This document shows, piece after piece, positions 3,261-60,560 of a DNA stretch of 64,000 nucleotides. Origin of the DNA: an uncultured bacterium (lineage in GTDB: Bacteria; Patescibacteriota; Patescibacteriia; 2-12-FULL-60-25). A program made the translations under genes and the position numbers. The notes below the pieces were generated by a model, which was not told the origin of the DNA, ran no database searches, and saw only the letters and a list, made by a program, of their open reading frames with translations. The stretch covers positions 1,090 through 65,089 of the forward strand of contig CALFEO010000002.1 in the NCBI GenBank assembly GCA_937949995.1. The letters run 5' to 3'. The first letter of the stretch is position 1. Every line of letters starts with the position of its first letter.

Positions 3261-3444
3261 CAATTCCAAATGCCAAACCTACAGTAATTCCAAATGCCAA
3301 ATTATGAATGCCAAACTTACGGCAATCCCAAATGCCAAATGACGAATGCCAAATATCGGTAACCCTGCGGGTTTTAAATTAATATATAATTAAGATAGCG
3401 TAGCGATACAATAATTTGGCATTAGGCATTAGTCATTTGGCATT
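3261..3444. repeat. family C word-repeat element (aatgccaaat arms around a unique core)
   Basis: Reiterated (c)caaatgccaaa words at 3261-3354, core atcggtaaccctgcgggttttaa...agcgtagcgatacaat, inverted arm atttggcattaggcattagtcatttggcatt (3414-3444). A second copy is at 54181-54342. Confidence 0.75.
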
Positions 3445-3459
3445 AAAAGTTTTTTCAAC

Positions 3460-3530
3460 ATTCTTAATTCTCTTGACCCTCGAAGCTTCAGCGAAGTGGG
3501 TTAATTCTTAATTCATAATTTTTAATTTTT
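3460..3530. repeat. family B word-repeat (attcttaattcataatt) flanking a small GC hairpin
   Basis: attcttaattc ... gaccctcgaagcttcagcgaagtgggtt ... aattcttaattcataatt. The same words occur at 6395-6426, 39441-39474 and 49867-50022. Confidence 0.7.
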
Positions 3531-3545
3531 ATTATTTTATTTCCC

Positions 3546-4262
3546 ATGTCTCTAAGCAATCTCCGCGCCGAACTCAAACAGAACGCCGACCCGAAACAGG
3601 CTACGATTTTGCGTGGGTTTTTTAAGACCGGAAAAGGGGAATATGGCGAAGGTGATATCTTCTTGGGCATCAAAGTCCCAATTCAGCGCGCAATCGCTAA
3701 AAACTACCAAAATTTGCCTCTGGCGGATCTTTTAAAACTACTCCACAGTAAAATCCACGAAGAACGCTTCACAGCCCTCGTGCTCATGGTAAATCTATAC
3801 CAAAAAGGGGATAACGCGCTCAAAAAACAAATCTACGAAGCTTATCTCGCGGACAGCGAATGGATCAACAATTGGGACTTGGTCGACACATCAACCCCGC
3901 AAATCGTCGGCGATTACCTCTGCAACTTCGGTGACGTTAGAGCCCTCGACAAACTCGCCGAATCAAATCTCCTCTGGGATCGCCGTATTGCCATACTCGC
4001 GACTTTTACCTTCATCCGCAACAACAACTTCAAACCCACGCTAAAAATCGCAAAGATACTCCTCCGCGACAATCACGACCTGATCCACAAAGCCGTAGGC
4101 TGGATGCTTCGCGAGGTCGGCAAAAAAGATATCAAAATCCTCAAAGAATTTTTAAACGATCATGCACACGAGATGCCTCGCACAACTTTAAGATACGCAA
4201 TTGAAAAACTAAACCGCCACGAACGCGATCAGTATCTAAAAGGACACATTGACACACCGTAA
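3546..4262 (+). CDS. DNA alkylation repair protein (AlkD/AlkC-like HEAT-repeat family)
   Basis: LRAELKQNADPKQA..LRGFFKTGKGEYGEGDIFLGIKVP..R, then NNWDLVD and WMLRE motifs typical of this family. Confidence 0.8.
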   Translation: MSLSNLRAELKQNADPKQATILRGFFKTGKGEYGEGDIFLGIKVPIQRAIAKNYQNLPLADLLKLLHSKIHEERFTALVLMVNLYQKGDNALKKQIYEAYLADSEWINNWDLVDTSTPQIVGDYLCNFGDVRALDKLAESNLLWDRRIAILATFTFIRNNNFKPTLKIAKILLRDNHDLIHKAVGWMLREVGKKDIKILKEFLNDHAHEMPRTTLRYAIEKLNRHERDQYLKGHIDTP

Positions 4263-4307
4263 GAATAGGCATAATCTTCGTGCGGAACCTTCAAAAAGAG
4301 GTGTTTC

Positions 4308-5060
4308 ATGGAAACGGAAACAACCGAAACACAACAAAACAATCAACCCGGCTGTAAAGGTTGTTTGAATATTCTTTTCATCTTTCAATTCCCCATAACT
4401 CTAATTGTGGCCGGCATCTTTTTTCCGGAAACCATACCGTTTAAAATCTTCGGGTTTTGGAACACATCAAAAGCCGTAGATGGCATTATTGCCGGCCTGC
4501 CGATGTTGCTTTGGACTTTGGTTGTCAATTTCATTGGTCAATTCGTCATCCGCAAACTCATCGAGCGCAACCCGGAGATGAAAGAAGCCAATGATGAAAG
4601 AATTGCCCAATCCTTGGCATCTCATCCGGGATACTTGCTAATAACATCGGTTTTTGAAGAAGTGGCTTTTCGATGGGTTATGTTTTTGGGCGGCATACCC
4701 TTGCTCAAAATAATAAACCACTTGTTCTTCGGCTTTGCCGGAATCGGAATTTTTGAAAGATTGCATATCTACATCATCGGCCCCATAGCCGATTTTACAA
4801 CCTTCGGTTATCTGCACAACTTTCTTTTTCACGAACACGGCTGGGCGGTGGGCGCATCACTTTTATCATCCAATGCGGTTTTTCGGGACGGCCACAAATA
4901 TCAAGGCTGGTTCGGCTATTTTAACGCTTGGTTCGCAGGCATGTACGTTTTCTACATAGCCTTAAATTACAGCCTGCTTTCCGCAATCGCCATCCACATA
5001 GCTGGCAATTACACCGCCCTGATCTTGATTCGTTTGTACGAACGTTTTCGCGAAGACTAA
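4308..5060 (+). CDS. CPBP (CAAX/Abi-type) intramembrane metalloprotease
   Basis: Multi-TM protein with the EEVAFRW (EExxxR) motif and a C-terminal HIAGN motif; SD aaagaggtg upstream. Confidence 0.75.
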   Translation: METETTETQQNNQPGCKGCLNILFIFQFPITLIVAGIFFPETIPFKIFGFWNTSKAVDGIIAGLPMLLWTLVVNFIGQFVIRKLIERNPEMKEANDERIAQSLASHPGYLLITSVFEEVAFRWVMFLGGIPLLKIINHLFFGFAGIGIFERLHIYIIGPIADFTTFGYLHNFLFHEHGWAVGASLLSSNAVFRDGHKYQGWFGYFNAWFAGMYVFYIALNYSLLSAIAIHIAGNYTALILIRLYERFRED

Positions 5061-12608: not shown

Positions 12609-12684
12609 CGCGCCGTAGAGCAGACAGCAGCTCGCTTGCCTCATAAGCAAGAGGTCGTGGGTGCAAGTCCCACCGGTGCCACCA
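12609..12684 (+). tRNA. tRNA-Met (anticodon CAT), phage-encoded, with encoded CCA
   Basis: Manual cloverleaf: acceptor cgcgccg/cggtgcc (C1xC72 unpaired), D stem gagc/gctc, anticodon stem cttgc/gcaag, loop ctCATaa, variable aggtc, T stem gtggg/cccac, then A-CCA. Confidence 0.75.
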
Positions 12685-12782
12685 ATGGTAATTAAGGCCT
12701 AAAACCAAAATTGCCAGTACATCCCAACCTGATGTGCATAAATCCCGCCTCACAAGGGCGGTTTTATGTATGGTTAGAGTAT

Positions 12783-28141: not shown

Positions 28142-28723
28142 ATGAAAAAACTATTTATTGACTTAGGCCACAGCCTAAAATACCCGGGCGCGTACGGACA
28201 TAAAACCGAGGTCCAATGGTCCCGTTGGATTTGGGGCTACTTGCACCACATGCTTGACGCGCAGGTGGACAATGCGGGTAATAAGAAATGGGAAATATTG
28301 CTGGTACCGGACAAGTTCGTTACGGATTGGTCGAGCAATCGCAACCTCATCAACCGCATAAACTGGATTAACGCGCGCAGTAAGACATGGCGCGATTATC
28401 TGCTCTCTATTCATGGAAACTGGGCCGGCAGAGACTTTGTTCGCGGTGTTACAACCGTTTACATGGGTGGGAGTAAAGTGGCTCAAAGTGAAGCATATGA
28501 GATGAGCAAGGCCTATTCCGAAGTTACCGGTGTACCGATTTGGAACGGCGGGGCTTTTGACGATAGAGATTCACGCTTCGGCCGTGTTGGCATGGTACGC
28601 GACACTAATCCGCTCGCCTTGCTCATTGAAGCCGGCTTTGTTACTTCCAAGGAAGACATGGACGTCGACGCACGCAAGGCGGCCGAGGGGATAGCCAAAT
28701 ACTTCGATTGTATAGATTTTTGA
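28142..28723 (+). CDS. N-acetylmuramoyl-L-alanine amidase (Amidase_3-type endolysin)
   Basis: IDLGHS, SIHGNW and ALLIEAGFVTSKED motifs; SD ggagg. Confidence 0.85.
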   Translation: MKKLFIDLGHSLKYPGAYGHKTEVQWSRWIWGYLHHMLDAQVDNAGNKKWEILLVPDKFVTDWSSNRNLINRINWINARSKTWRDYLLSIHGNWAGRDFVRGVTTVYMGGSKVAQSEAYEMSKAYSEVTGVPIWNGGAFDDRDSRFGRVGMVRDTNPLALLIEAGFVTSKEDMDVDARKAAEGIAKYFDCIDF

Positions 28724-29081: not shown

Positions 29082-29255
29082 ATGCTAATTTGCAGGGCTT
29101 GGATCACTGTTAACGGGGAACGCCTCTATGCCAGCGACTACGGTCGCAAAGCATTTTGCTGGGATTCTTCAAAGGAAGCGCAAGCTATCTGGAGAGCCAA
29201 GCTAAAACGAAAAGGCCGCCGTAAACAGCGACCCGCCAAACTAACAAAAGTGTAA
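29082..29255 (+). CDS. possible small basic protein (57 aa)
   Basis: MLICRAWITVNGERLYASDYGRKAFCW...KLKRKGRRKQRPAKLTKV. Below the track threshold; no clear SD; followed by a terminator. Confidence 0.3.
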   Translation: MLICRAWITVNGERLYASDYGRKAFCWDSSKEAQAIWRAKLKRKGRRKQRPAKLTKV

Positions 29256-29271
29256 AAACTTTTACCAAATT

Positions 29272-29292
29272 CCCCATTACCGTGGGGTTTTT
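29272..29292 (+). terminator. intrinsic terminator
   Basis: cccca-ttaccg-tgggg followed by ttttt. Confidence 0.6.
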
Positions 29293-30204: not shown

Positions 30205-31809
30205 ATGGCCGACACTAAGCTAAGCATAATCGTTCAAGCGAAAGACCAAGCGTCTAAGGACATTGAACGTCTTAATGGGAAACTTGGCAGTCTTGGCAAG
30301 GGTTTTGCGGCAGTTGGAACGGTAGCAACCGCAACAACCGCAGCGATTGCCGTTGCGGCAACAGGCGTTGGAATTTTAGGTTACAACGCAATTAAAGCGG
30401 CCAGTGAATTGGAACAGCAAAGAGTTGCATTTGAGACAATGCTGGGAAGTGCGGAAAAAGCGGGGGAGTTTATTAAAGATTTAACCAACTTTGCCAAATC
30501 AACACCTTTCGAACTTAAGGGCCTTGAAAATGCATCGAAATCTTTACTTGCTTACGGATTTGCACAAGAGGAGATTTTGCCAAACCTAAAGTCATTGGGA
30601 GATATTGCTTCCGGTGTCGGCATGGAGAAACTGCCGAATCTTATCCTTGCTTTTGGCCAAGTTAAGGCGGCAACAAAGCTGACGGGCATGGAACTGCGTC
30701 AATTCACCGAGGCCGGCGTCCCATTACTTGATCAACTGGCAAAGCAAATGAATAAACCGGTATCAGAAATTCAAGCAATGGTATCGGCCGGAGAGATTGG
30801 TTTTCCAGCTGTTCAAGCGGCGCTGGCCGCACTTACTGGCGAGGGGGGCAGATTTAACAACCTCATGGAGAATCAATCAAAAACCTTTGGAGGCATGGTG
30901 TCTAATCTTAAAGATTCTTGGGATTTATTTTTACGTGGAGCCGGTGAGCCATTACTGGATTGGGCCAAGGCGATCATCGAAAAATTAATTTTTATTACGA
31001 ATAATGTACTCCCTCCCTTAGTTACAAGATTGGATGAGTTTATCAAATCTATAAATACAAATTTTCCAACACTCGACGGACTGAAAAATAAATTTGCCGA
31101 AATCTCAAAAAAGATTGAGGAGAAAACGGGGTTAATATCTCAACTCAAGGAAGCATGGGATCGCGTAGCAACTAAAATCACCAATGAACTCATGCCTGCA
31201 CTTCAAGAGCTTTGGGTAGCAATGCAACCGTACATGCCTTTATTGGAACTTTTTGCGCAGATCATACTCGGTGTTGTCGTTTTAGCTTTGAAGATTTTTG
31301 TAGAGGTTGTAACTACCCTAATCGAAAAATTTATCGGGTTTGTTACATGGATCACCAAAACCGAAACCGCTTTACTCGAAAGATTGCAGCCGGCCATTGG
31401 TATTATGCAAGCAGTGCTTGGTGCTCTAAGCAATTCCATTCAGTGGGTTATCGATAAATTCAATGGCATGGTTTCTGCTGCAAATGCCGCCTATGAAGCG
31501 GCCCAAAGAGCGGCCAGTTTGGTGGGGAGAGTAGGCTCAGCTGTAGCAACCGGTGGAATCTCAGAGGTTGTTAGAGCTGTAACGCACCAAGCGTCAGGTG
31601 GAATTGTAACCAGTCCAACCCATATCTTGGCTGGTGAAGAAGGGCCGGAGGCTATTATTCCGCTTAACAGATTAGCAGGCGCAGGAGGCAACGGGGTGAA
31701 TATCTACATCACCGGCGGCTCTTTTGTCGGCGTAGATAATAGCGAAGTTGCGCGAATTTTAGGCGATAGAATTATCAAGCAATTACAGATGACTCATCGC
31801 CTTGGTTAA
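30205..31809 (+). CDS. tail tape measure protein
   Basis: Conserved TMP core (FETMLGSAEKAGEFIKDLTNFAKSTPFEL...LAYGF...LGDIASG...QVKAATKLTGMELRQFTEAGVPLL), hydrophobic and coiled-coil segments. Confidence 0.85.
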   Translation: MADTKLSIIVQAKDQASKDIERLNGKLGSLGKGFAAVGTVATATTAAIAVAATGVGILGYNAIKAASELEQQRVAFETMLGSAEKAGEFIKDLTNFAKSTPFELKGLENASKSLLAYGFAQEEILPNLKSLGDIASGVGMEKLPNLILAFGQVKAATKLTGMELRQFTEAGVPLLDQLAKQMNKPVSEIQAMVSAGEIGFPAVQAALAALTGEGGRFNNLMENQSKTFGGMVSNLKDSWDLFLRGAGEPLLDWAKAIIEKLIFITNNVLPPLVTRLDEFIKSINTNFPTLDGLKNKFAEISKKIEEKTGLISQLKEAWDRVATKITNELMPALQELWVAMQPYMPLLELFAQIILGVVVLALKIFVEVVTTLIEKFIGFVTWITKTETALLERLQPAIGIMQAVLGALSNSIQWVIDKFNGMVSAANAAYEAAQRAASLVGRVGSAVATGGISEVVRAVTHQASGGIVTSPTHILAGEEGPEAIIPLNRLAGAGGNGVNIYITGGSFVGVDNSEVARILGDRIIKQLQMTHRLG

Positions 31810-31826
31810 TTCGTGGTATAGTAGGA

Positions 31827-31856
31827 TTGACAAAAATCTTAATTTGTGTTAGTAAT
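31827..31856 (+). promoter_or_regulatory. sigma70-like promoter for the moron gene
   Basis: TTGACA - 17 nt - TAGTAA(T). The box TTGACAAAA(A)TCTTAA recurs at 37239. Confidence 0.4.
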
Positions 31857-31864
31857 CAACCACT

Positions 31865-32515
31865 ATGACACACGAAAGGAACGAGACCGAGGCTAAAAAG
31901 CCTTGGTATAAAACCGTGTTGGGAATTTTATTTATCATTTTTACTTTTCCCTTAACGCTACCGCCGGTATTGCTGTACGTTATTTGGGTAAAGAGCAAGC
32001 AGGATCAGATCGTGAAAATCATCTTAACGGCTCTGATCGCTATCGTGACGCTTGTGATTTGGATTCCGGCGCTGTCTGACAATCAGACTCAAACGGACTC
32101 CAATGCACTCCGTCAGACTCCAACAGACTCCGTGACAGAGTCTACCTCACAGGAAAAGGCTGAAAACATTGACGAAAGCGAACTCCAACCGACTCCGGAA
32201 CCGAGTCCGAAGCAAAAAGAATGGGTTAATGTCTTTGAGGTGACAGCTAATTCCAGCAAGCAAAGCGAAACGTTTCACCTAAACGGCGGTCAACAAAAAA
32301 TCATCTACAAAACAGTTGGGGATGATTATACGATGTGCGCTATCTACGTTATGGATGAGGGTACAAGCTTAGACGAAAATGGTGGATTTCCGGTGGTCAT
32401 GATTGACGGAAGTCAGGAAGACGAAACCATGATGAGAAAATCCGCCGGTGATTATTACATGGATTTGAGCATCGCTAATGGTTCTTGCATCGTTGAATTG
32501 CAGGAATATAGATAG
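31865..32515 (+). CDS. membrane protein moron (2-3 TM helices, S/T/P/E linker, extracytoplasmic domain)
   Basis: Own promoter and strong terminator; inserted between the TMP and distal tail genes; not a virion-type sequence. Confidence 0.55.
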   Translation: MTHERNETEAKKPWYKTVLGILFIIFTFPLTLPPVLLYVIWVKSKQDQIVKIILTALIAIVTLVIWIPALSDNQTQTDSNALRQTPTDSVTESTSQEKAENIDESELQPTPEPSPKQKEWVNVFEVTANSSKQSETFHLNGGQQKIIYKTVGDDYTMCAIYVMDEGTSLDENGGFPVVMIDGSQEDETMMRKSAGDYYMDLSIANGSCIVELQEYR

Positions 32516-32535
32516 CCTACAATCCTGTTAATAAA

Positions 32536-32558
32536 AGACCCCCACACGGGGGTTTTTT
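32536..32558 (+). terminator. intrinsic terminator
   Basis: accccc-acac-gggggt followed by ttttt. Confidence 0.75.
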
Positions 32559-32659
32559 GTTTGTGGATAATCAAAGCCTCTCAAAACAGCAACCTGATAT
32601 TCTCACAATATCCTTTGCTGTACTTGCAAAGGGTGGCAACAAAATGATTTAATAAGCTC

Positions 32660-32748
32660 AATCCGTTCAAGCGGCGAGCGCATTTAATCAGGCAAGGGAA
32701 ACCTTGTCGGGAGGAAACTCCCTGCGTTGCCATTTGAACGGATTTTTT
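32660..32748 (+). ncRNA. candidate ~90-nt structured sRNA with two GAAA-capped hairpins
   Basis: Closing stem aatccgttcaa/ttgaacggatt (32660-32670 / 32734-32744) plus T-run. Inner hairpins caagg-GAAA-ccttg (32693-32706) and gggag-GAAA-ctccc (32709-32722). Possible promoter TTGCAA(32624)-18-TTTAAT. Confidence 0.4.
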
Positions 32749-33108
32749 AGTCCGTTAATGGCAAATAACAGACGCATTTGCGCCTTAGTTTAGAATTGCC
32801 CGTTTATAGTCGACAGACTTGTACGTAACAAGAACGCGCCGGAATTTCCCAAAGCCGTTAATAGGGTTCACTACCTTATGGGCAGAGCTTCAGAGGGGAT
32901 ACAGGATCCACCGCCGTCCTCCCCGACCTGCTTTGCTCGTAAGATAAAAATACAAAACTCCCCTTGTGAGGGAGTCTCATAACCGCCTAACCTGCGTGTT
33001 AGGTAAAAACCTAATACCCCTCTACCTTAGCAGGGAAAAGGCGGTTTTGTCCAGTTCCTTTGTTGATAACAACACCTTGCTCAAGGCTGTTTTTGTTACG
33101 CTTATTCC

Positions 33109-35097
33109 ATGATCACCGTAACAATCGCCGGAATAGACAGAACCAGCTCGATAGATTGGCAGTCTTTGACTATTCAGCAGGTAGCTACCTCAGAGGTGGA
33201 TACTGCGAGCTTCAAAATCAAGCTGTACGGCACGAAAACCTATCAGCCGGCTATCGGCGAGGAAGTTCTCATCCTAGACGACGCTACAGCTATTTTTGGC
33301 GGTACAATCGTGCGTATATCCAATACAGTGGAAGCCGGCGGGCTTACCAGCCTCAATATCGAGTGTGCGAGCCACGAAAGAACGCTCGACCGCTATCTTG
33401 TGGCCAGGGAAATCCAAAACAAGGATATTTTTTACTGCCTTAATACGCTGGTGGCGGAGTTCGTCAATCGCACAAAAAAGGTGATTGCCTCCATGGAAGA
33501 CTCGGAAACATGGACTAATGAAGACGGCTCGACCACGCAAAACACAACCGCAGGGCAGTACATCCTTGAGACGCAAAGCGAGAAGTTTACGGCCACGGCC
33601 GGCAATACAGCCACCGCGAGATGTGAGCGTTCTTTGGATTTGACTGTCTTTGATAACGGTTTAGCCTCGGATGATGATGACTGGATTACGCTTTGGTACT
33701 ACGTGGATAATCCCAATAACTTTGCCAGCTTGCGGTTGCGCTTAACCATAGACGCGGCCGGCACGTACACGAATTACTACGAAACCACAATTTTAAGCAC
33801 TCCAAGGACAGGCTGGAACCAAGCTAAAATCGCCAAATCCGCTTTTACAGAAACCGGCACGCCGGCTTGGGCGAGCATTACCTATCTGCAAATCCAAGCT
33901 ACGGCCGGAGCGGGCGGTACGGTGAACGTGAGCGTTGACGATATTCGCCTCATAAGCGCGGATACGGGCTTTACTCAACAAGGAGTAAAAGACGCGAGCC
34001 GAACTTTGGGAAGCGTTAAATTCAACTATGAGCAGATGAGCCAAGCGGTGAAGCAAATCGCCGAAGCCGTGGCGTATGAGTGGTATATCGACGCATACAG
34101 GGATATTAACCTCTATGAGCCGTCAGGCAACCCTGCGCCGTTTTCTTTGACCGATACCAGCCAAAACTTTGTTTGGAACAGCTTGGAACTCGACGACGAC
34201 CTCACCAATATCCGCAATCAGGTGTATGTGAGAGGGGGAGAGTACGAGGGAAGCTCGGTAACTGAAAGCATGACCGCGGACGGGCAACAACTCCACTTTC
34301 CCACGCCATACAAGATGAAAGACGTGAGCGTTACGGTAGCGACCGTGGCCAAGACCGTGGGAGTCGATAACTTGAACGATCCCGCTGATTACGATTGCTT
34401 GTACAACTACATGGAGAAAACGCTCAAATTCAAGAGCGCGACCAAGCCCTCATCCGGTCAGGTGGTGGCGATTACGGGTACTCCCATGATTCCGGTCATC
34501 ATCAAGAAGTATGACGCGACGTCAGTGGCGCAATATGGCGTTTTTGAGCACTTAATCGTAGATAAGAGCATTATCACCCTCCAAGGGGGGAGAGACCGCG
34601 CTGCGGCTGAATTAAGCGCGTACAGGAACGAGATAACCGAAGGGAGCTTTGAGACCACGACCTCGGGACTCATCGCAGGTCAGACAATCAGCATAAACAT
34701 CACCGCAAGGGGGATAAGCGATACGTACAGGATTAAGAGCATAAACTTTCAAGCCAAAAGCCCGAGCGAGTTTACCTACAAAATCAGGCTCGTAACCACA
34801 CGCACCTTTGGCATAATCGAGTACCTGCTTGACGCTCTCAAAAAAGACCGCAAGCAGATTGACCTTAATGACTTCGAGGTTACGGATTTGGTGCAAGACA
34901 TCCGCGAGACCATTACTGTTACCGACGTCTGGACGGAAATGCCGAGGAATACGATAAGCGAAGAGGCGACCGTGGAAGAAGTTACGCAGGATAATCTGGA
35001 CTTTGGTTATGAGTGGGTTTTGGGCCCGTACGTCCCCACAGACATCGCGACCGATAAGAAAAGGGTGTTTATAACCAATGGGGGGAGATTGATTTAA
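33109..35097 (+). CDS. distal tail / baseplate-type structural protein
   Basis: N-terminus ITVTIAGIDRTSSIDWQSLTIQQ...DTASFKI...GEEVLILDD...IFGGTIV is typical of siphovirus tail proteins downstream of the TMP; 662 aa. Confidence 0.55.
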   Translation: MITVTIAGIDRTSSIDWQSLTIQQVATSEVDTASFKIKLYGTKTYQPAIGEEVLILDDATAIFGGTIVRISNTVEAGGLTSLNIECASHERTLDRYLVAREIQNKDIFYCLNTLVAEFVNRTKKVIASMEDSETWTNEDGSTTQNTTAGQYILETQSEKFTATAGNTATARCERSLDLTVFDNGLASDDDDWITLWYYVDNPNNFASLRLRLTIDAAGTYTNYYETTILSTPRTGWNQAKIAKSAFTETGTPAWASITYLQIQATAGAGGTVNVSVDDIRLISADTGFTQQGVKDASRTLGSVKFNYEQMSQAVKQIAEAVAYEWYIDAYRDINLYEPSGNPAPFSLTDTSQNFVWNSLELDDDLTNIRNQVYVRGGEYEGSSVTESMTADGQQLHFPTPYKMKDVSVTVATVAKTVGVDNLNDPADYDCLYNYMEKTLKFKSATKPSSGQVVAITGTPMIPVIIKKYDATSVAQYGVFEHLIVDKSIITLQGGRDRAAAELSAYRNEITEGSFETTTSGLIAGQTISINITARGISDTYRIKSINFQAKSPSEFTYKIRLVTTRTFGIIEYLLDALKKDRKQIDLNDFEVTDLVQDIRETITVTDVWTEMPRNTISEEATVEEVTQDNLDFGYEWVLGPYVPTDIATDKKRVFITNGGRLI

Positions 35098-35113
35098 TTG
35101 CTATATTGCTTTT

Positions 35114-35572
35114 ATGGACATTAAGGACAAAGTTAAATGCGCAGGCAAAGTTACCGTAACCGTACGTGATGAGAACGGGAATATTGTTGATTGGGATGTT
35201 TATTACAACGTGGTTACGATTGCCGGACGCGCGAAAATCTTGGAGGCTCTAACTTCGCCCGATGTTGATATTCAGGTCAATAAGGTGGCTTTAGGCTCGG
35301 GAACGACAGCGCCGTCCGAGAATGACACAACTCTCGAAACCGAAACATACCGCAACAATATCGCCTCATCCGTGTGGGATGACAACGTAGGCTATTTTAC
35401 GGGGCATTTTACGCTAACCGAAGTCTCGGGCACATTCCGCGAAATCGGGCTGTTTATTCAAGGCGCAGGGGATCCGGATACGGGCACACTCTTATCGCAC
35501 GTCGCCATTAACAAAACCAAAACAACATCGCAATCCTTGGATGTTGACTGGGAAATCACTCTCTCAATATGA
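35114..35572 (+). CDS. tail-collar-fibre-like domain protein (paralog 1)
   Basis: ALGSGTTAPSENDTTLETETYRN...FREIGLFI...DTGTLLSHV.I.KT...SL.V.WEITL. A paralog lies at 36648..37235. Confidence 0.5.
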   Translation: MDIKDKVKCAGKVTVTVRDENGNIVDWDVYYNVVTIAGRAKILEALTSPDVDIQVNKVALGSGTTAPSENDTTLETETYRNNIASSVWDDNVGYFTGHFTLTEVSGTFREIGLFIQGAGDPDTGTLLSHVAINKTKTTSQSLDVDWEITLSI

Positions 35573-36651
35573 CCTATCCTAATATTTGGGCTATTGCCGA
35601 CCAGGTGGACGCCGCGGATTTGAATGACTCAATATACAATCCGGCTTATACGTACGGCGAGAGCATTGTGGCCGGTGATGGATTGTATCTCAAAGCCTCG
35701 GACGGGAAAGTCTATAAAGCGGACGCGGATGTTCTAGCGCACGTTAAAGCATTTGTCGGCGTTGCCATTGAGGCGGGAAGTGCAGACGACGTTAAACGTA
35801 TTCTCGGACCAGGGAAAATGACAACCGGATTAAGCGGTCTCACGGCGGGAAGTCCGGTGTATCTATCCAACACAGCCGGAGGATTCAGCGCGACCGCGGG
35901 CACAATCAAGCTTGCTGTAGGTGTAGCGGTAAGTACAACCGCGTTTATTTTGATTATTCCAAATTTTGACCAGATTGCAGACTTTGCGGAACGAAACCTC
36001 GGCCAAGGAACCTCTGGGGAAGCTTTGGCTGTCGGTGAGGCCGGCTATCTCAAAGCCTCGGACGGCAAGATTTACAAGACAGACGCGGACGCGGATGAGT
36101 CGACATATTCTTTTATTGGAATTATTCAAAGTCCGGCGTCAGGCGCGGATGAAACAATTCTGTACACTAAACCAGGGGGTACGGCTGTTGGATTAACCGG
36201 TCTCACGGCCGGCGAATATCTCTTTTTATCGGGCACTGCCGGAGCCTTGGCCAATACGCCCCATGCCACACGTTACGCTAAAGTAGCGCAAGCCAAATCC
36301 ACAACCAGCGTCAGAGTTTTGGAGCCGAAGTTTATTCGTAGAGGCTCGCAATCTGTTTCGACGAACACGGATTACGTGCAAACCTGCGGATTTTATCCTG
36401 CGAAAATACACATCAGAGCAATCCTTACTTCTACAAAACGCTGGTCTCTCGGTAACGATTCCAATGACATCGCTTTTTTAAGCGACACAACCTTGGGATA
36501 TTCATCGAGTCACGCGTGGTGCGTCGGAGCAACAGCAGCCTTAAATAGGGGTACTGTCAGTGCAAAAAGCCAAACCGGCTTTACCCTAACATCAGTTAAT
36601 CGCGACGCCAGTGATGTTTATACCGTGTACTGGGAAGCTGAAAGTCTATGA
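35569..36651 (+). CDS. fibre/receptor-binding candidate with internal duplication
   Basis: Two ~110-aa repeats (GDGLYLKASDGKVYKADAD...GLSGLTAGSPVYLSNTAGG / GEAGYLKASDGKIYKTDAD...GLTGLTAGEYLFLSGTAGA). Confidence 0.5.
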   Translation: MTYPNIWAIADQVDAADLNDSIYNPAYTYGESIVAGDGLYLKASDGKVYKADADVLAHVKAFVGVAIEAGSADDVKRILGPGKMTTGLSGLTAGSPVYLSNTAGGFSATAGTIKLAVGVAVSTTAFILIIPNFDQIADFAERNLGQGTSGEALAVGEAGYLKASDGKIYKTDADADESTYSFIGIIQSPASGADETILYTKPGGTAVGLTGLTAGEYLFLSGTAGALANTPHATRYAKVAQAKSTTSVRVLEPKFIRRGSQSVSTNTDYVQTCGFYPAKIHIRAILTSTKRWSLGNDSNDIAFLSDTTLGYSSSHAWCVGATAALNRGTVSAKSQTGFTLTSVNRDASDVYTVYWEAESL

Positions 36652-37235
36652 TCACATTACAAGTCAAAGAACACCTCAATATCAAGACCGTCTATACGGC
36701 CACAATTTGTGATTTCACGAAAGCAATCGCGGAATATTACACATTGCTCAACTTCTTGAAGAAGCCACTCCCTAAGGGCAAAAACGGGCGCGAGAGGCAC
36801 CGGATGATGTATCAACACCTCAAAGACGCATATCACAAGGCGGCGGCCGTCAGGGTGGAGAAATACGTCAATCTCGCCCCTACGGCGGGGAGAGCTGTAA
36901 TAGCGCAGAGGTTATCGAACATCACCACCTACACGGGGATACTCAATTATGCGGCTTTGGGGGATGATACAACCGTGCCAACCAACGGAGATACCACTTT
37001 GGGCAACGAAACATATCGTCAGACCATTACCAGCCAAAACGCGGTTAATAATCTAAGCTACCAATCGGTTTTTATTCCGGCTGGCACAGCCACGGGAACG
37101 CACAAAGAAGCCGGATTGTTTATTGACGGCGCGGCGGGTGCTGATACAGGGCAATTATTCAGCCACGTGAATATTGACATCACGAAAAGCGCGCAAAACT
37201 CTTTGACGCTGGACATTGAAATCACACTGGCCTAG
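36648..37235 (+). CDS. tail-collar-fibre-like domain protein (paralog 2)
   Basis: ALGDDTTVPTNGDTTLGNETYRQ...HKEAGLFI...DTGQLFSHVNIDITKS..NSLTLDIEITL. Confidence 0.5.
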   Translation: MITLQVKEHLNIKTVYTATICDFTKAIAEYYTLLNFLKKPLPKGKNGRERHRMMYQHLKDAYHKAAAVRVEKYVNLAPTAGRAVIAQRLSNITTYTGILNYAALGDDTTVPTNGDTTLGNETYRQTITSQNAVNNLSYQSVFIPAGTATGTHKEAGLFIDGAAGADTGQLFSHVNIDITKSAQNSLTLDIEITLA

Positions 37236-38455: not shown

Positions 38456-39304
38456 TCATTTGTAATAGATCCTCCCCGGTATCCTTACATCTACATATTC
38501 TTGAATATCATCCCAAGCCGGTTTGGTTTGAATAAATTGCCTTAAAGTATCAATTTGCGCTTCTAAAGAAATATCTTCATCCATAATCACATCTTTATTT
38601 TCTTTCAAAATAATATGCAATATGCCGGGTTCACTATCATTTATCTGTATCGCTTTAAACCAAATACCTGAATTACGTAATTTTTCGGCCAAATCAAGCC
38701 ATCCTCGAACTATATTTGTGTCCGTATACTTTAAACCGATTTCATAATCGGTTGAAGTTGGCATAATAACAAAAATTTCTTTTAGAGAATCAACGGGAAC
38801 GGAACTTGATAAAAATTCTCGTGTTGTTGAAACTGTAGTTTGATCCGCATAGTCTGTGATCACGCCATAATCATCAACGATATATATTTTGTTTCTTGTC
38901 ACCAAAATCACACTCCTCTGCCGTTCCTTAATCTTGAGTCGTAAAATATTTGGATATATTTTGTCCACAACGGCCGATTCAATAAAAAATGTGTTCATTA
39001 GATGATCTTCCACATTTTGTTCATCAATCAAAAATATATTTCGCTTATCCTTTATCCAGCTCTCTCTTGCATCCAAAAACTTACCTATCTCCCCTGTTAC
39101 CGCATCTCTTTCCAGTACAGTCAAAGCATTAACCTCATATTCCCCTACTGAAAAATATCCCGAAAAAAATACAAACCAAAAACCTGCAATAATGATAAAC
39201 AAAACAAACAAAAAATAAGCGAGCCAAGGCCGCGGCTTTTGCCTGCCTCCCCTCCCCTTCAAAACCCCCTCCTCTATATTACCCTCCCGCTTTTTAAAAA
39301 ACAT
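38456..39304 (-). CDS. FtsQ/DivIB-like cell division protein (POTRA domain)
   Basis: N-terminal TM helix, then YFSVGEYEV...IFLIDEQNVEDHL...IESAVVDKIYPNILRLKIKERQ. Confidence 0.65.
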   Translation of the reverse strand: MFFKKREGNIEEGVLKGRGGRQKPRPWLAYFLFVLFIIIAGFWFVFFSGYFSVGEYEVNALTVLERDAVTGEIGKFLDARESWIKDKRNIFLIDEQNVEDHLMNTFFIESAVVDKIYPNILRLKIKERQRSVILVTRNKIYIVDDYGVITDYADQTTVSTTREFLSSSVPVDSLKEIFVIMPTSTDYEIGLKYTDTNIVRGWLDLAEKLRNSGIWFKAIQINDSEPGILHIILKENKDVIMDEDISLEAQIDTLRQFIQTKPAWDDIQEYVDVRIPGRIYYK

Positions 39305-39315
39305 ATACAGTTACA

Positions 39316-39424
39316 GTACGAATTACGAATCTGCGCGAATTACGAATCTGTAATTCAGCTATCATTTTATCCCAAGGGATAAAATGTAAACCATTCGTAA
39401 TTCGCGCAGATTCGTAATTCGTAC
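39316..39424. repeat. 32-bp perfect inverted repeat (family E, tacgaat words) around a small hairpin
   Basis: gtacgaattacgaatctgcgcgaattacgaat (39316-39347) is the exact reverse complement of 39393-39424. The centre holds ttttatccc-aa-gggataaaa (39365-39384). Confidence 0.85.
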
Positions 39425-39480
39425 CGTCAATCCGTACCGTAAATTCATAATTCTTAATTCATAATTCTTAATTATGTATT

Positions 39481-40500
39481 CTATAGTTTCCTCCTCCATT
39501 TCCTGATCCTCTCAACAACATAATTAAGATAATACTTTGGCGATATCGCGTAATCCTGTGCATGCAAATAAGCCTCTTCAAAACCGCCAAAACCCTTTTT
39601 AAATAGGGATAAACCGGCCCAAGGATGCTTTGGTTTATCAGGCGGAGCGATACCCCAAAAGTTATAATATTTACACCCTCGCCGCTTAGCCTCTTGTATC
39701 AATCGCCACTGTAACAATTGCGATGTTGGCACATTACCCGTATGCAACGAAGCTCCGTGATGATAGTAAGCTCCGCCGCCATCAAAAACAATCAAAGCTC
39801 CGGAAACAACCTTATCTTCATAAAGCGCGAAACCCAGAACCGCTTTATTGTTCACATTAAAAACTTCAAATTCCTTTTTTAAAAACTCTTTCGAAAAAGG
39901 TGTAAATTTTTGTCTCTGTACCGTCTCTTTATACAAATCCCAAAATCTTTCCACGTCATCAATATTATTTGATATTTCAATTTTAACACCATCTTTTTCA
40001 CCCTTGCGAATCGCATGTCTTGTCGTCTTTCGCATGTCTTGCAGTATCTGCTCATCATCTCGATTTATATCAATCATCCACGACAATTCCGGGTGTTGAT
40101 GTATGGGCGCATTTCGAAATCCCATTTTAGCGAACAAATCAGAATATTGCTGTTCATTCGGTAACAAAGTACATAATCGTACAAATGAACAACTTTTGTA
40201 CTCATCCACATCTTTCAACCTCTGCATCAATGAACCAATGCATTGCTCATAATCCAAGAAGTTTGTAACCAACGGCCCATGCGGACACAACAAAAAAGAT
40301 CCTCTTTTGGCTTTATGAAAAATAACCTGTGCCAATCCGATCAACTCTTCATCTTTATAAAATCCCCACCGATAAACCTTATGTCCGTTCAAGCTGTTAA
40401 ATTCTCCCCAACTCCAAGATTGCAAAAATGAATGCGGCTGTAAATCATGTATCTTGGACTCCCAAATTTCTTGATTATTTATCTCTTGTGTTTTTATCAT
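39481..40500 (-). CDS. FemAB-family peptidoglycan interpeptide-bridge peptidyltransferase
   Basis: FLQSWSWGEF..., two GNAT-like halves, YYHHGAS and YNFWGI motifs. Confidence 0.8.
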   Translation of the reverse strand: MIKTQEINNQEIWESKIHDLQPHSFLQSWSWGEFNSLNGHKVYRWGFYKDEELIGLAQVIFHKAKRGSFLLCPHGPLVTNFLDYEQCIGSLMQRLKDVDEYKSCSFVRLCTLLPNEQQYSDLFAKMGFRNAPIHQHPELSWMIDINRDDEQILQDMRKTTRHAIRKGEKDGVKIEISNNIDDVERFWDLYKETVQRQKFTPFSKEFLKKEFEVFNVNNKAVLGFALYEDKVVSGALIVFDGGGAYYHHGASLHTGNVPTSQLLQWRLIQEAKRRGCKYYNFWGIAPPDKPKHPWAGLSLFKKGFGGFEEAYLHAQDYAISPKYYLNYVVERIRKWRRKL

Positions 40501-60420: not shown

Positions 60421-60560
60421 ATAAGTTCATCAAGTTTAAAGTTCATCAAGAGAAGCTTAAGTAACTCTTGATGAACTTTAGACTTTCAACTTGATGAACT
60501 ACTTTTGTTACTCTTGACGAACTTTTTACTTTTAACTTGATGAACTTATTATTCCCGCGC
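60421..60560. repeat. family A word-repeat hairpin
   Basis: aagttcatcaag x2, then ctcttgatgaact, cttgatgaact, ctcttgacgaact, cttgatgaact. Confidence 0.7.

Follow-up and report, generated by a model that had tools for sequence, protein, structure and literature searches.

A hairpin-dense, ORF-less region with a candidate small RNA gene in a variable cargo slot of a Patescibacteria prophage

The sequence analysed here, referred to as the window, is a 64-kb stretch of contig CALFEO010000002.1 from an uncultured bacterium of the Patescibacteria. At roughly 5–38 kb it contains a siphovirus-like prophage of ca. 32 kb, and within the tail operon of this prophage there is a gap of 550 bp (32559–33108) between the coding sequence (CDS) of a moron (31865–32515) and a tail gene (33109–35097). 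The gap is very probably an insertion in a variable cargo slot, and models of its fold and of its promoter-like and terminator-like sites suggest that it probably encodes at least one small RNA (sRNA) of ca. 90 nt. The best explanation found for the whole gap is a moron-type accessory insertion that has no open reading frame (ORF) and carries one or more sRNA genes, in a hypervariable cargo slot between the gene for the tape-measure protein (TMP), or the moron, and the first distal tail gene; this reading in full is given an even chance of being correct. Non-coding accessory cargo at a hotspot of phage recombination is an ordinary kind of feature; the sequence itself is novel, since no known family matched it.

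Five contigs (L001, L030, L081, L082 and L083) share the TMP, moron and tail genes of the window, and the differences among them lie downstream of the moron. The flanking genes are 85–93% identical in nucleotides (computed for L001 and L030), and L001, a metagenome-assembled genome (MAG) from Patescibacteria, encodes a tail protein 97% identical to the 662-aa tail protein of the window. The three contigs L081, L082 and L083, each from a different sample, have the basal genotype: the moron, a terminator, a 50-nt leader and the ATG, with only 97 nt between the genes. The window has ca. 490 bp of non-coding DNA after the moron terminator that is absent from these three. At the same place L030 has 150 nt preceded by a reverse-strand gene whose 195-aa product is hydrophobic at its N-terminus, and L001 has, in this order, a reverse-strand gene of 191 aa, a strong promoter, the terminator of L081 and a non-coding insert of ca. 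305 bp.

In most relatives (L003, L004, L007, L009, L010, L013–L021 and L027) the TMP gene abuts the tail gene, so the TMP–tail junction is an insertion hotspot. The contents of the occupied slots are diverse. L001, L008 and L024/25 carry reverse-strand genes with a Cys-rich N-terminus that looks zinc-ribbon-like by eye; these form a family of 190–232 aa with an N-terminal CxxC...CxxC, all on the minus strand (L001 2874–3449, L025 3224–3922, L008 ca. 4252–4930), and the L001 and L025 proteins are 32% identical (E = 6e-31). The L001 gene is apparently leaderless, behind TGnTATAAT. L002 and L026 have an ORF of 74–77 aa. In L022 (4755–4995) and L023 (ca. 3440–3680) the slot holds a small ORF with Cys and His motifs that appear HNH-like by eye; if this is a free-standing homing endonuclease, it would fit the junction as a target of mobile elements. 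The slot of three remoter relatives, L005, L006 and L011, is a C-rich, ORF-free spacer of ca. 200 nt (L005 2189–2394, L006 2405–2610, L011 2291–2473).

The insert in the window is surrounded by an imperfect direct repeat of ca. 40 bp. Its left copy, J1 (32548–32584, plus strand), consists of a hairpin 3' arm, a T-run and TTTGTGGATAAT ... CTCAA, and its right copy, J3 (33040–33084, plus strand), of a hairpin 3' arm, a T-run and TTTGTTGATAAC ... CTCAA, so that both follow one pattern: GC-rich hairpin (3' arm), T-run, TTTGTKGATAAY, CTCAA. None of 500 shuffles reached the observed score in any of three comparisons: J1 with J3, J1 with the single junction of L081, and J1 with J1 of L001. J1 and J3 each match the single junction of L081, and the same duplication is present in L001. 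The hairpin arm of J1 belongs to T1 (32538–32558), the intrinsic terminator of the moron, with the form ACCCCC-ACAC-GGGGGT followed by T6; an upstream A-tract makes it bidirectional in form. At the right end is B2 (32981–33046, plus strand), a long and irregular terminator-like hairpin, AACCGCC ... GGCGGUU followed by UUUUGU, whose aaccgcc/ggcggtt pairing the preliminary description of this DNA had already pointed out. The 3' arm and T-run of B2 are at the position of the basal moron terminator, and the alignment of J3 with L081 places AAAAGGCGGTTTT opposite AACAGACGGGTTT. Because J1 and J3 match the single L081 junction, B2 and J3 rebuild the original 'terminator + leader' arrangement ahead of the tail gene. 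The conserved leader itself (33058–33108, plus strand) is common to L001 (88% over 51 nt), L030 (the last ca. 35 nt) and L081–83; an exact or degenerate search for it in IMG/VR gave no matches.

Between these borders the window and L001 are not recognisably the same sequence. Aligned locally they score at the mean of the shuffles, aligned globally they reach a z-score of only 2.5, and nhmmer found nothing. As the interiors cannot be aligned despite flanks of 85–93% identity, they are exchanged alleles and not vertical orthologs. Two further contigs from independent assemblies, L028 (SRR3330210) and L029 (ERZ724083), carry a moron identical to that of the window and end within 4 nt of each other, at positions equivalent to 32608 and 32604, respectively, ca. 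15 nt before the promoter-like site of unit A described below. Their ends suggest that the assembly graph branches here between strains, and fit with variation in the population that starts at 32604–32608. The loci of related phages are from the Hainich aquifer series and from other metagenomes. These comparisons mark the gap as an insertion when set against the basal genotype, lying in an accessory slot that is hypervariable, and not as a conserved part of the tail operon.

There is no credible ORF in the gap, either in the standard code or with TGA or TAG read as sense. The preliminary description had set a ceiling of ca. 35 codons for ORFs here, which is wrong, as the longest have 50, 48 and 42 codons (32581–32733 on the minus strand, 50 aa; 32966–33112 on the plus strand, 48 aa); none of them is coding-like, so the substance of that description stands. 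A decayed protein gene, or one masked by an alternative genetic code, has to be considered, since the slots of relatives hold genes and UGA is recoded in some relatives among the Patescibacteria. The longest stop-free stretch is ca. 62 codons in the standard code and ca. 108 codons when recoded, but the latter runs across two of the folded elements described below, unit A and hairpin C, and all genes neighbouring the gap read normally in table 11. When proteins from the slots of L001, L025, L022, L002 and L026 were searched against the gap with tblastn, nothing was found below E = 0.7. An intact protein gene in the homologous region, a case raised in the preliminary description, is present in none of the relatives, and no remnant of a slot gene was found. 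A decayed or recoded gene is thus the most improbable of the explanations weighed here. A type I toxin–antitoxin pair was also ruled out, as the gap has no hydrophobic small ORF. A template repeat of a diversity-generating retroelement was rejected, with no direct repeat joining the gap to nearby genes; no reverse transcriptase domain was found in the scanned flanking ORFs (31865–37235 and neighbours).

The gap is more structured than expected by chance, as had been proposed for it. Folded as a whole it has a z-score of -7.2, and in a sliding scan of 100-nt windows across all 64 kb, those starting at 32951 and 32651 rank second and third of 1278. The signal is confined to two or three separate modules, and the stretch between them at 32751–32850 has a z-score of about 0.

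RNA families were searched for with the 4227 models of Rfam 15, which include riboswitches, ribozymes, GOLLD and ROOL, Y RNA and phage sRNAs, first at the gathering threshold and then with E up to 10. The sole match in the window at the gathering threshold was a tRNA-Met at 12609. With E up to 10 there were only weak, terminator-driven matches, the best at 21.5 bits where the gathering score is 47. The relatives gave no match either, and the gap matches no curated RNA family. A blastn search of INPHARED found no matching phage DNA. The C-rich spacers of L005, L006 and L011 contain three plus-strand CACTCC(C/T)C motifs and one GGGGGAGTGGGG complement, a motif not enriched elsewhere in those loci; their fold z-scores are -0.95 and -2.9, and they too have no Rfam match. 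Kinship of the gap with these CCACTCCCC-rich spacers was rejected, as the window shows no enrichment of the motif and no relation was seen between the folds.

A single large structured RNA across most of the gap would agree with the low z-score of the whole and with the minimum free energy (MFE) fold, which pairs 32824–32840 with 33085–33100. However, predicted terminators lie inside the gap, on the plus strand at 32748 and on the minus strand at 32941–32981; unstructured stretches separate the modules; and no match to GOLLD, ROOL or any other large RNA was found. No conserved long-range helix was found, the long-range helices of the MFE folds being different in the window and L001. A long-range pairing of aaaacagc with gctgtttt had also been suggested. 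The 8-nt complement (32583/33087) is present, but about two such are expected by chance in 550 nt, the MFE fold does not use it, and it is not conserved. One large RNA is very unlikely, given mosaic modules and opposing terminators; of the earlier proposal of 'one large or several small' non-coding RNAs, the second part fares better, with unit A sRNA-like and hairpin C kept in L001.

Unit A (32660–32748, plus strand) is a candidate sRNA of ca. 90 nt, delimited by its predicted fold and U-run. The fold has a 12-bp closing stem including a G.U pair, helices of 3 bp and 6 bp, an 8-nt internal loop and two adjacent GAAA-capped hairpins of 7 bp and 5 bp, for a total of 33 bp. Its MFE is -48.6 kcal/mol (z = -7.2), none of 200 shuffles folded as well, and the MFE and centroid structures are the same. 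The minus strand reaches -37.2 kcal/mol against the -48.6 kcal/mol of the plus strand, and the better fold, the G.U pairs and the GAAA loops favour the plus strand. The closing stem with its U-run (32733–32748, T-run 32743–32748) is a predicted intrinsic, factor-independent terminator. The preliminary description had recognised this unit; its two GAAA hairpins, AGCGCA/UGCGUU helix and T-run are retained here, but the closing stem has 12 bp and not 11, and the first hairpin 7 bp and not 5.

Directly upstream is a promoter-like site, P_A (32624–32653, plus strand), which reads TTGCAA-18-TGaTTTAAT and has an extended -10, with TG two bases upstream. By a relaxed score it is the top plus-strand promoter-like site in 31780–33200, in keeping with the promoter proposed previously, and the start predicted from it, at ca. 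32660, is the first base of the unit A stem. With its promoter-like site, compact fold and predicted intrinsic terminator, unit A is laid out like a self-contained sRNA gene. Whether it would be transcribed as a stable sRNA is put at about even odds.

Unit A is also an imperfect palindrome of ca. 89 bp with inverted ends of 16 nt. A second copy was found neither in the window nor among 83 related and unrelated loci with blastn, nhmmer and a covariance model, and a multi-copy miniature inverted-repeat transposable element (MITE) was ruled out on this ground. Core sites resembling attC, seen by eye, were rejected as well – GCCTAAC and GTTAGGT are only 6 nt apart inside B2, too close, and there is no integrase.

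Hairpin C (32875–32943, plus strand) is the sole interior element recognisably common to the window and L001. Its outer stem has 14 bp; inside this are an internal loop, a GGGGA/UCCCC helix and a small helix at the apex, and CCCCGACYUG on the 3' side is conserved. A covariance model of 32872–32946 had one non-self match in 664 kb, of 17 bits, at L001 3745–3815, which is inside the L001 insert, in the syntenic place and on the same strand. Nineteen of the 23 pairs are kept, eight of them with changes on both sides, while two are broken and two fall in gaps. Structural conservation of hairpin C is suggested by this compensatory signal, which is not proof, because it comes from two sequences in a model-fitted alignment. 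The core motif had 45 matches in IMG/VR, to none of which the model of hairpin C gives more than 13.3 bits, compared to 17 for L001, and these are read as chance matches for that reason.

Next to hairpin C is B1 (32941–32981, minus strand), a predicted intrinsic terminator with a 13-bp stem, the loop CACAA and the tail UUUUUAUCUU. Its stem contains four G.U pairs, which form on the minus strand only. A hairpin described earlier as actccc/gggagt is part of it (actcccc/gggagt, 32958–32976) and is better read as this minus-strand terminator. A central TCACAAG is common to B1 (32951–32981, minus strand, CTCCC-TCACAAG-GGGAG) and a terminator elsewhere in the window (12745–12761, plus strand, CCGCC-TCACAAG-GGCGG).

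Several results weigh against an accessory insertion with sRNA genes. P_A fails a strict consensus scan, because position 2 of its -10 is not A, a base that is near-invariant there in promoters. Single-sequence covariance models found no counterpart of unit A in the window or 34 loci, and none of module B in the 34 loci, so the comparison with relatives that had been proposed as a check for covariation favours hairpin C and gives nothing for the other two. An exact or degenerate search of IMG/VR with the unit A core had no matches. The evidence for hairpin C is a model-fitted alignment of two sequences, and the E-value of its match over the whole search is only 0.39. No minus-strand promoter-like site was found for B1. 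The base composition of the gap does not differ from that of its surroundings (GC 0.42–0.48 in the gap, 0.40–0.53 in the flanks). Finally, the gap cassette is missing from L030 and L081–83 and is therefore dispensable for the phage.

These results bear on a second explanation, that the gap is a recombination scar – non-functional debris of repeated gain and loss of cassettes, in which the hairpins are orphan terminators and duplicated junctions of former cargo. Three terminator-like hairpins in the gap are each followed by a junction-like sequence (T1/J1, A/J2 and B2/J3), as in a pile-up of cassette ends. B1 is a minus-strand terminator for which neither a gene nor a promoter-like site was found, and reverse-strand genes do occupy the slot in relatives. 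Units A and B are unique to the genome of the window, and dispensability is also what a scar would predict. Unit A, however, goes beyond a terminator, with its 33 bp, two GAAA loops and a predicted start that coincides with the base of the stem. The fold of hairpin C survives eight double changes, and remnants of the slot genes of relatives are not detectable. A phage of 32 kb would rarely keep 0.5 kb of junk, and L001 holds a comparable non-coding insert of ca. 305 bp. A scar is considered rather unlikely, but an untranscribed region would be just that, a recombination scar of the ordinary kind.

The position of the terminators within an operon raises a third explanation. No plus-strand promoter-like site was found in 32750–33108, and transcription of the tail gene must thus read through T1 and unit A. 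P_A and unit A could then give a terminated transcript close to the promoter as a control on the distal tail genes, with a structured leader of ca. 360 nt tuning read-through, processing or translation of the tail gene. This logic is like that of lambda PR'-6S RNA-tR', or of an RNA antitermination element such as put of HK022. Read-through or restart is needed because the terminators interrupt the operon, which speaks for such a leader. L001 is analogous in having a promoter, a hairpin RNA of ca. 55 nt and a terminator, and the distance from the end of the terminator to the tail ATG is 370 nt there and 359 nt in the window. In detail, the L001 segment (3542–3631) consists of a near-consensus promoter, TTGACA-17-CATAAT (3542–3570), the two-hairpin RNA and a terminator identical to the moron terminator of L081–83; lying at the right-hand border of the cassette with the reverse gene, it may be a second small terminated transcript.

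That same identity tells against a cis-acting leader, the L001 terminator being the basal moron terminator. In the basal genotype the same tail gene follows only the moron terminator and the 50-nt leader, and L030 has a different 150 nt, so a structured leader is not required. There is no adjacent antiterminator gene, and a promoter feeding a very stable terminator would yield little tail expression. A leader that acts in cis is judged improbable.

Under the preferred explanation, an accessory insertion with sRNA genes, cassettes would enter through recombination at the terminator/junction sequence. Unit A would be an independent plus-strand transcription unit that starts at ca. 32660 from a sigma-70-like extended -10 and ends at its own closing stem and U-run, and its product a stable, almost fully base-paired sRNA of ca. 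90 nt. The distal ca. 300 nt, with hairpin C, B1 and B2, may be a second and older non-coding module, with structural selection acting on hairpin C. Transcription of the late tail genes would have to pass these terminators, as it would already pass the moron terminator in the basal genotype. In the most speculative step, the sRNA or sRNAs would act in trans as accessory regulators expressed in the lysogen, like the sRNAs at moron sites of lambdoid prophages; a trans-acting function of unit A is speculation by analogy. A bolder extension is improbable: that RNA-only cassettes spread among phages of Patescibacteria through the 'terminator + TTTGTKGATAAY' junction, that unit A founds a new class of structured sRNAs expressed in lysogens (for example a decoy, a sponge, or an exclusion or anti-defence RNA), and that hairpin C is a conserved site for processing or protein binding.

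The genes on both sides of the gap belong to a prophage set that includes an ERF recombinase, the tRNA-Met at 12609, terminase, portal, capsid, tube, endolysin, TMP and tail proteins. The moron CDS (31865–32515, plus strand) encodes 216 aa, with hydrophobic N-terminal stretches, a low-complexity linker and a C-terminal domain of ca. 100 aa. Read by eye, the N-terminal stretches are probably membrane-spanning. The moron protein has no match in Pfam or PHROG, and a search for its relatives in IMG/VR gave none; homologs of the C-terminal domain occupy varied positions in phages and prophages. A promoter-like site for the moron, TTGACA-18-AGTAAT (31827–31856, plus strand), is within the 55-nt spacer between TMP and moron. 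This spacer (31810–31864) is 100% identical in three genomes, corresponding to L001 2191–2245 and L030 4946–5000, compared to 85–93% in the flanking coding DNA. The moron gene is mosaic, with ca. 86% identity in the first 180 nt and 69% over the whole gene.

The 662-aa distal tail protein (33109–35097, plus strand) is the right border of the slot. Some 40-odd remoter homologs of it come from viral contigs of 30–35 kb and from MAGs of Patescibacteria or Paceibacterota. Look-ups of the exact sequences of the tail protein, the TMP and a 152-aa protein of the window found no record.

Terminator-like and other structured sites also occur elsewhere in the window. In the late region, another interruption is a pair of back-to-back terminator-like hairpins at 29213–29287 (minus strand 29234–29213, plus strand 29272–29287). 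The pair lies in an ORF-poor stretch of 725 bp that runs from the endolysin gene (28142–28723) to a 114-aa ORF upstream of TMP. Host genes follow the prophage, among them an ftsQ-like gene (38456–39304, minus strand) and a FemAB gene (39481–40500, minus strand). Between these two is a 35-nt inverted repeat (39313–39427), 97% complementary, with ATTCGTAATTCG-like units; it encloses a 10-bp hairpin and folds with -64.7 kcal/mol (z = -13.8). The strongest predicted structure of the window in the 100-nt scan is at 60424–60500 (window 60401, z = -8.2), a near-perfect inverted repeat of ca. 29 bp made of AAGTTCATCAAG units, with more direct copies downstream, between convergent host ORFs. In form it resembles either a bidirectional terminator or an array of operators or iterons.

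To our knowledge, almost nothing has been described of phage biology and RNA regulation in the Patescibacteria (Candidate Phyla Radiation, CPR). Transcription of unit A would place it with the first sRNA candidates encoded by prophages in this group. In that case it would also show that the moron slots of phages can carry cargo that is RNA only, entering by way of a recognisable terminator–junction repeat. The practical value is modest: a defined candidate sRNA of 89 nt, a conserved hairpin, and a map of a cargo hotspot in which at least five different contents occur.

The morons of lambdoid phages, reportedly treated by Juhala et al. in 2000, are one known system with which the gap can be compared. 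Like them, the gap adds DNA between two genes that are neighbours in related phages, comes with a promoter-like site and a predicted intrinsic terminator of its own, and is mosaic and exchangeable among close relatives in its content. Next to it in the tail operon is a moron of the classical, protein-coding type. Unlike those morons, it has no protein-coding gene, so its presumed product is RNA, and its base composition is that of its flanks. The moron concept in general has been reviewed (PMC3594210).

The palindromic form of unit A and the direct repeats around the insert recall MITE-like elements of the Correia or ERIC type. In contrast to such elements, unit A is single-copy, and the repeats are ca. 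40 bp of terminator/junction sequence and not a short target duplication. With lambda PR'-6S RNA-tR' the gap shares a promoter followed by a short terminated transcript upstream of late genes, here as predictions. It differs in lying in the middle of an operon, next to TMP and a membrane protein, and not at the head of the late operon; in having no adjoining Q-like gene; and in that the unit is absent from close relatives with the same genes.

In lambdoid prophages of enterohaemorrhagic Escherichia coli (EHEC), convergent sRNAs – anti-sRNAs of the AsxR/AgvB type – occupy the interval that separates a moron CDS from the next conserved ORF (Tree et al. 2014, PMC4104026). These sRNAs are 51–60 nt long, bind Hfq and lie downstream of PR' (PMC4104026). 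The non-coding units of the gap likewise follow a moron CDS and precede the next phage ORF that is conserved, and their content, too, differs among related prophages. Unit A on the plus strand faces B1 on the minus strand, which gives a convergent layout, though no minus-strand promoter-like site was found. The differences are that unit A is ca. 90 nt and almost fully paired, and that the gap is in the middle of a tail operon in a Patescibacterium. The gap has no match to any Rfam family, and the likeness to AsxR and AgvB is one of layout, with no direct sequence comparison made. By this analogy the convergent sRNAs of EHEC prophages appear to be the closest described counterpart of the gap, as a matter of resemblance and not of homology.

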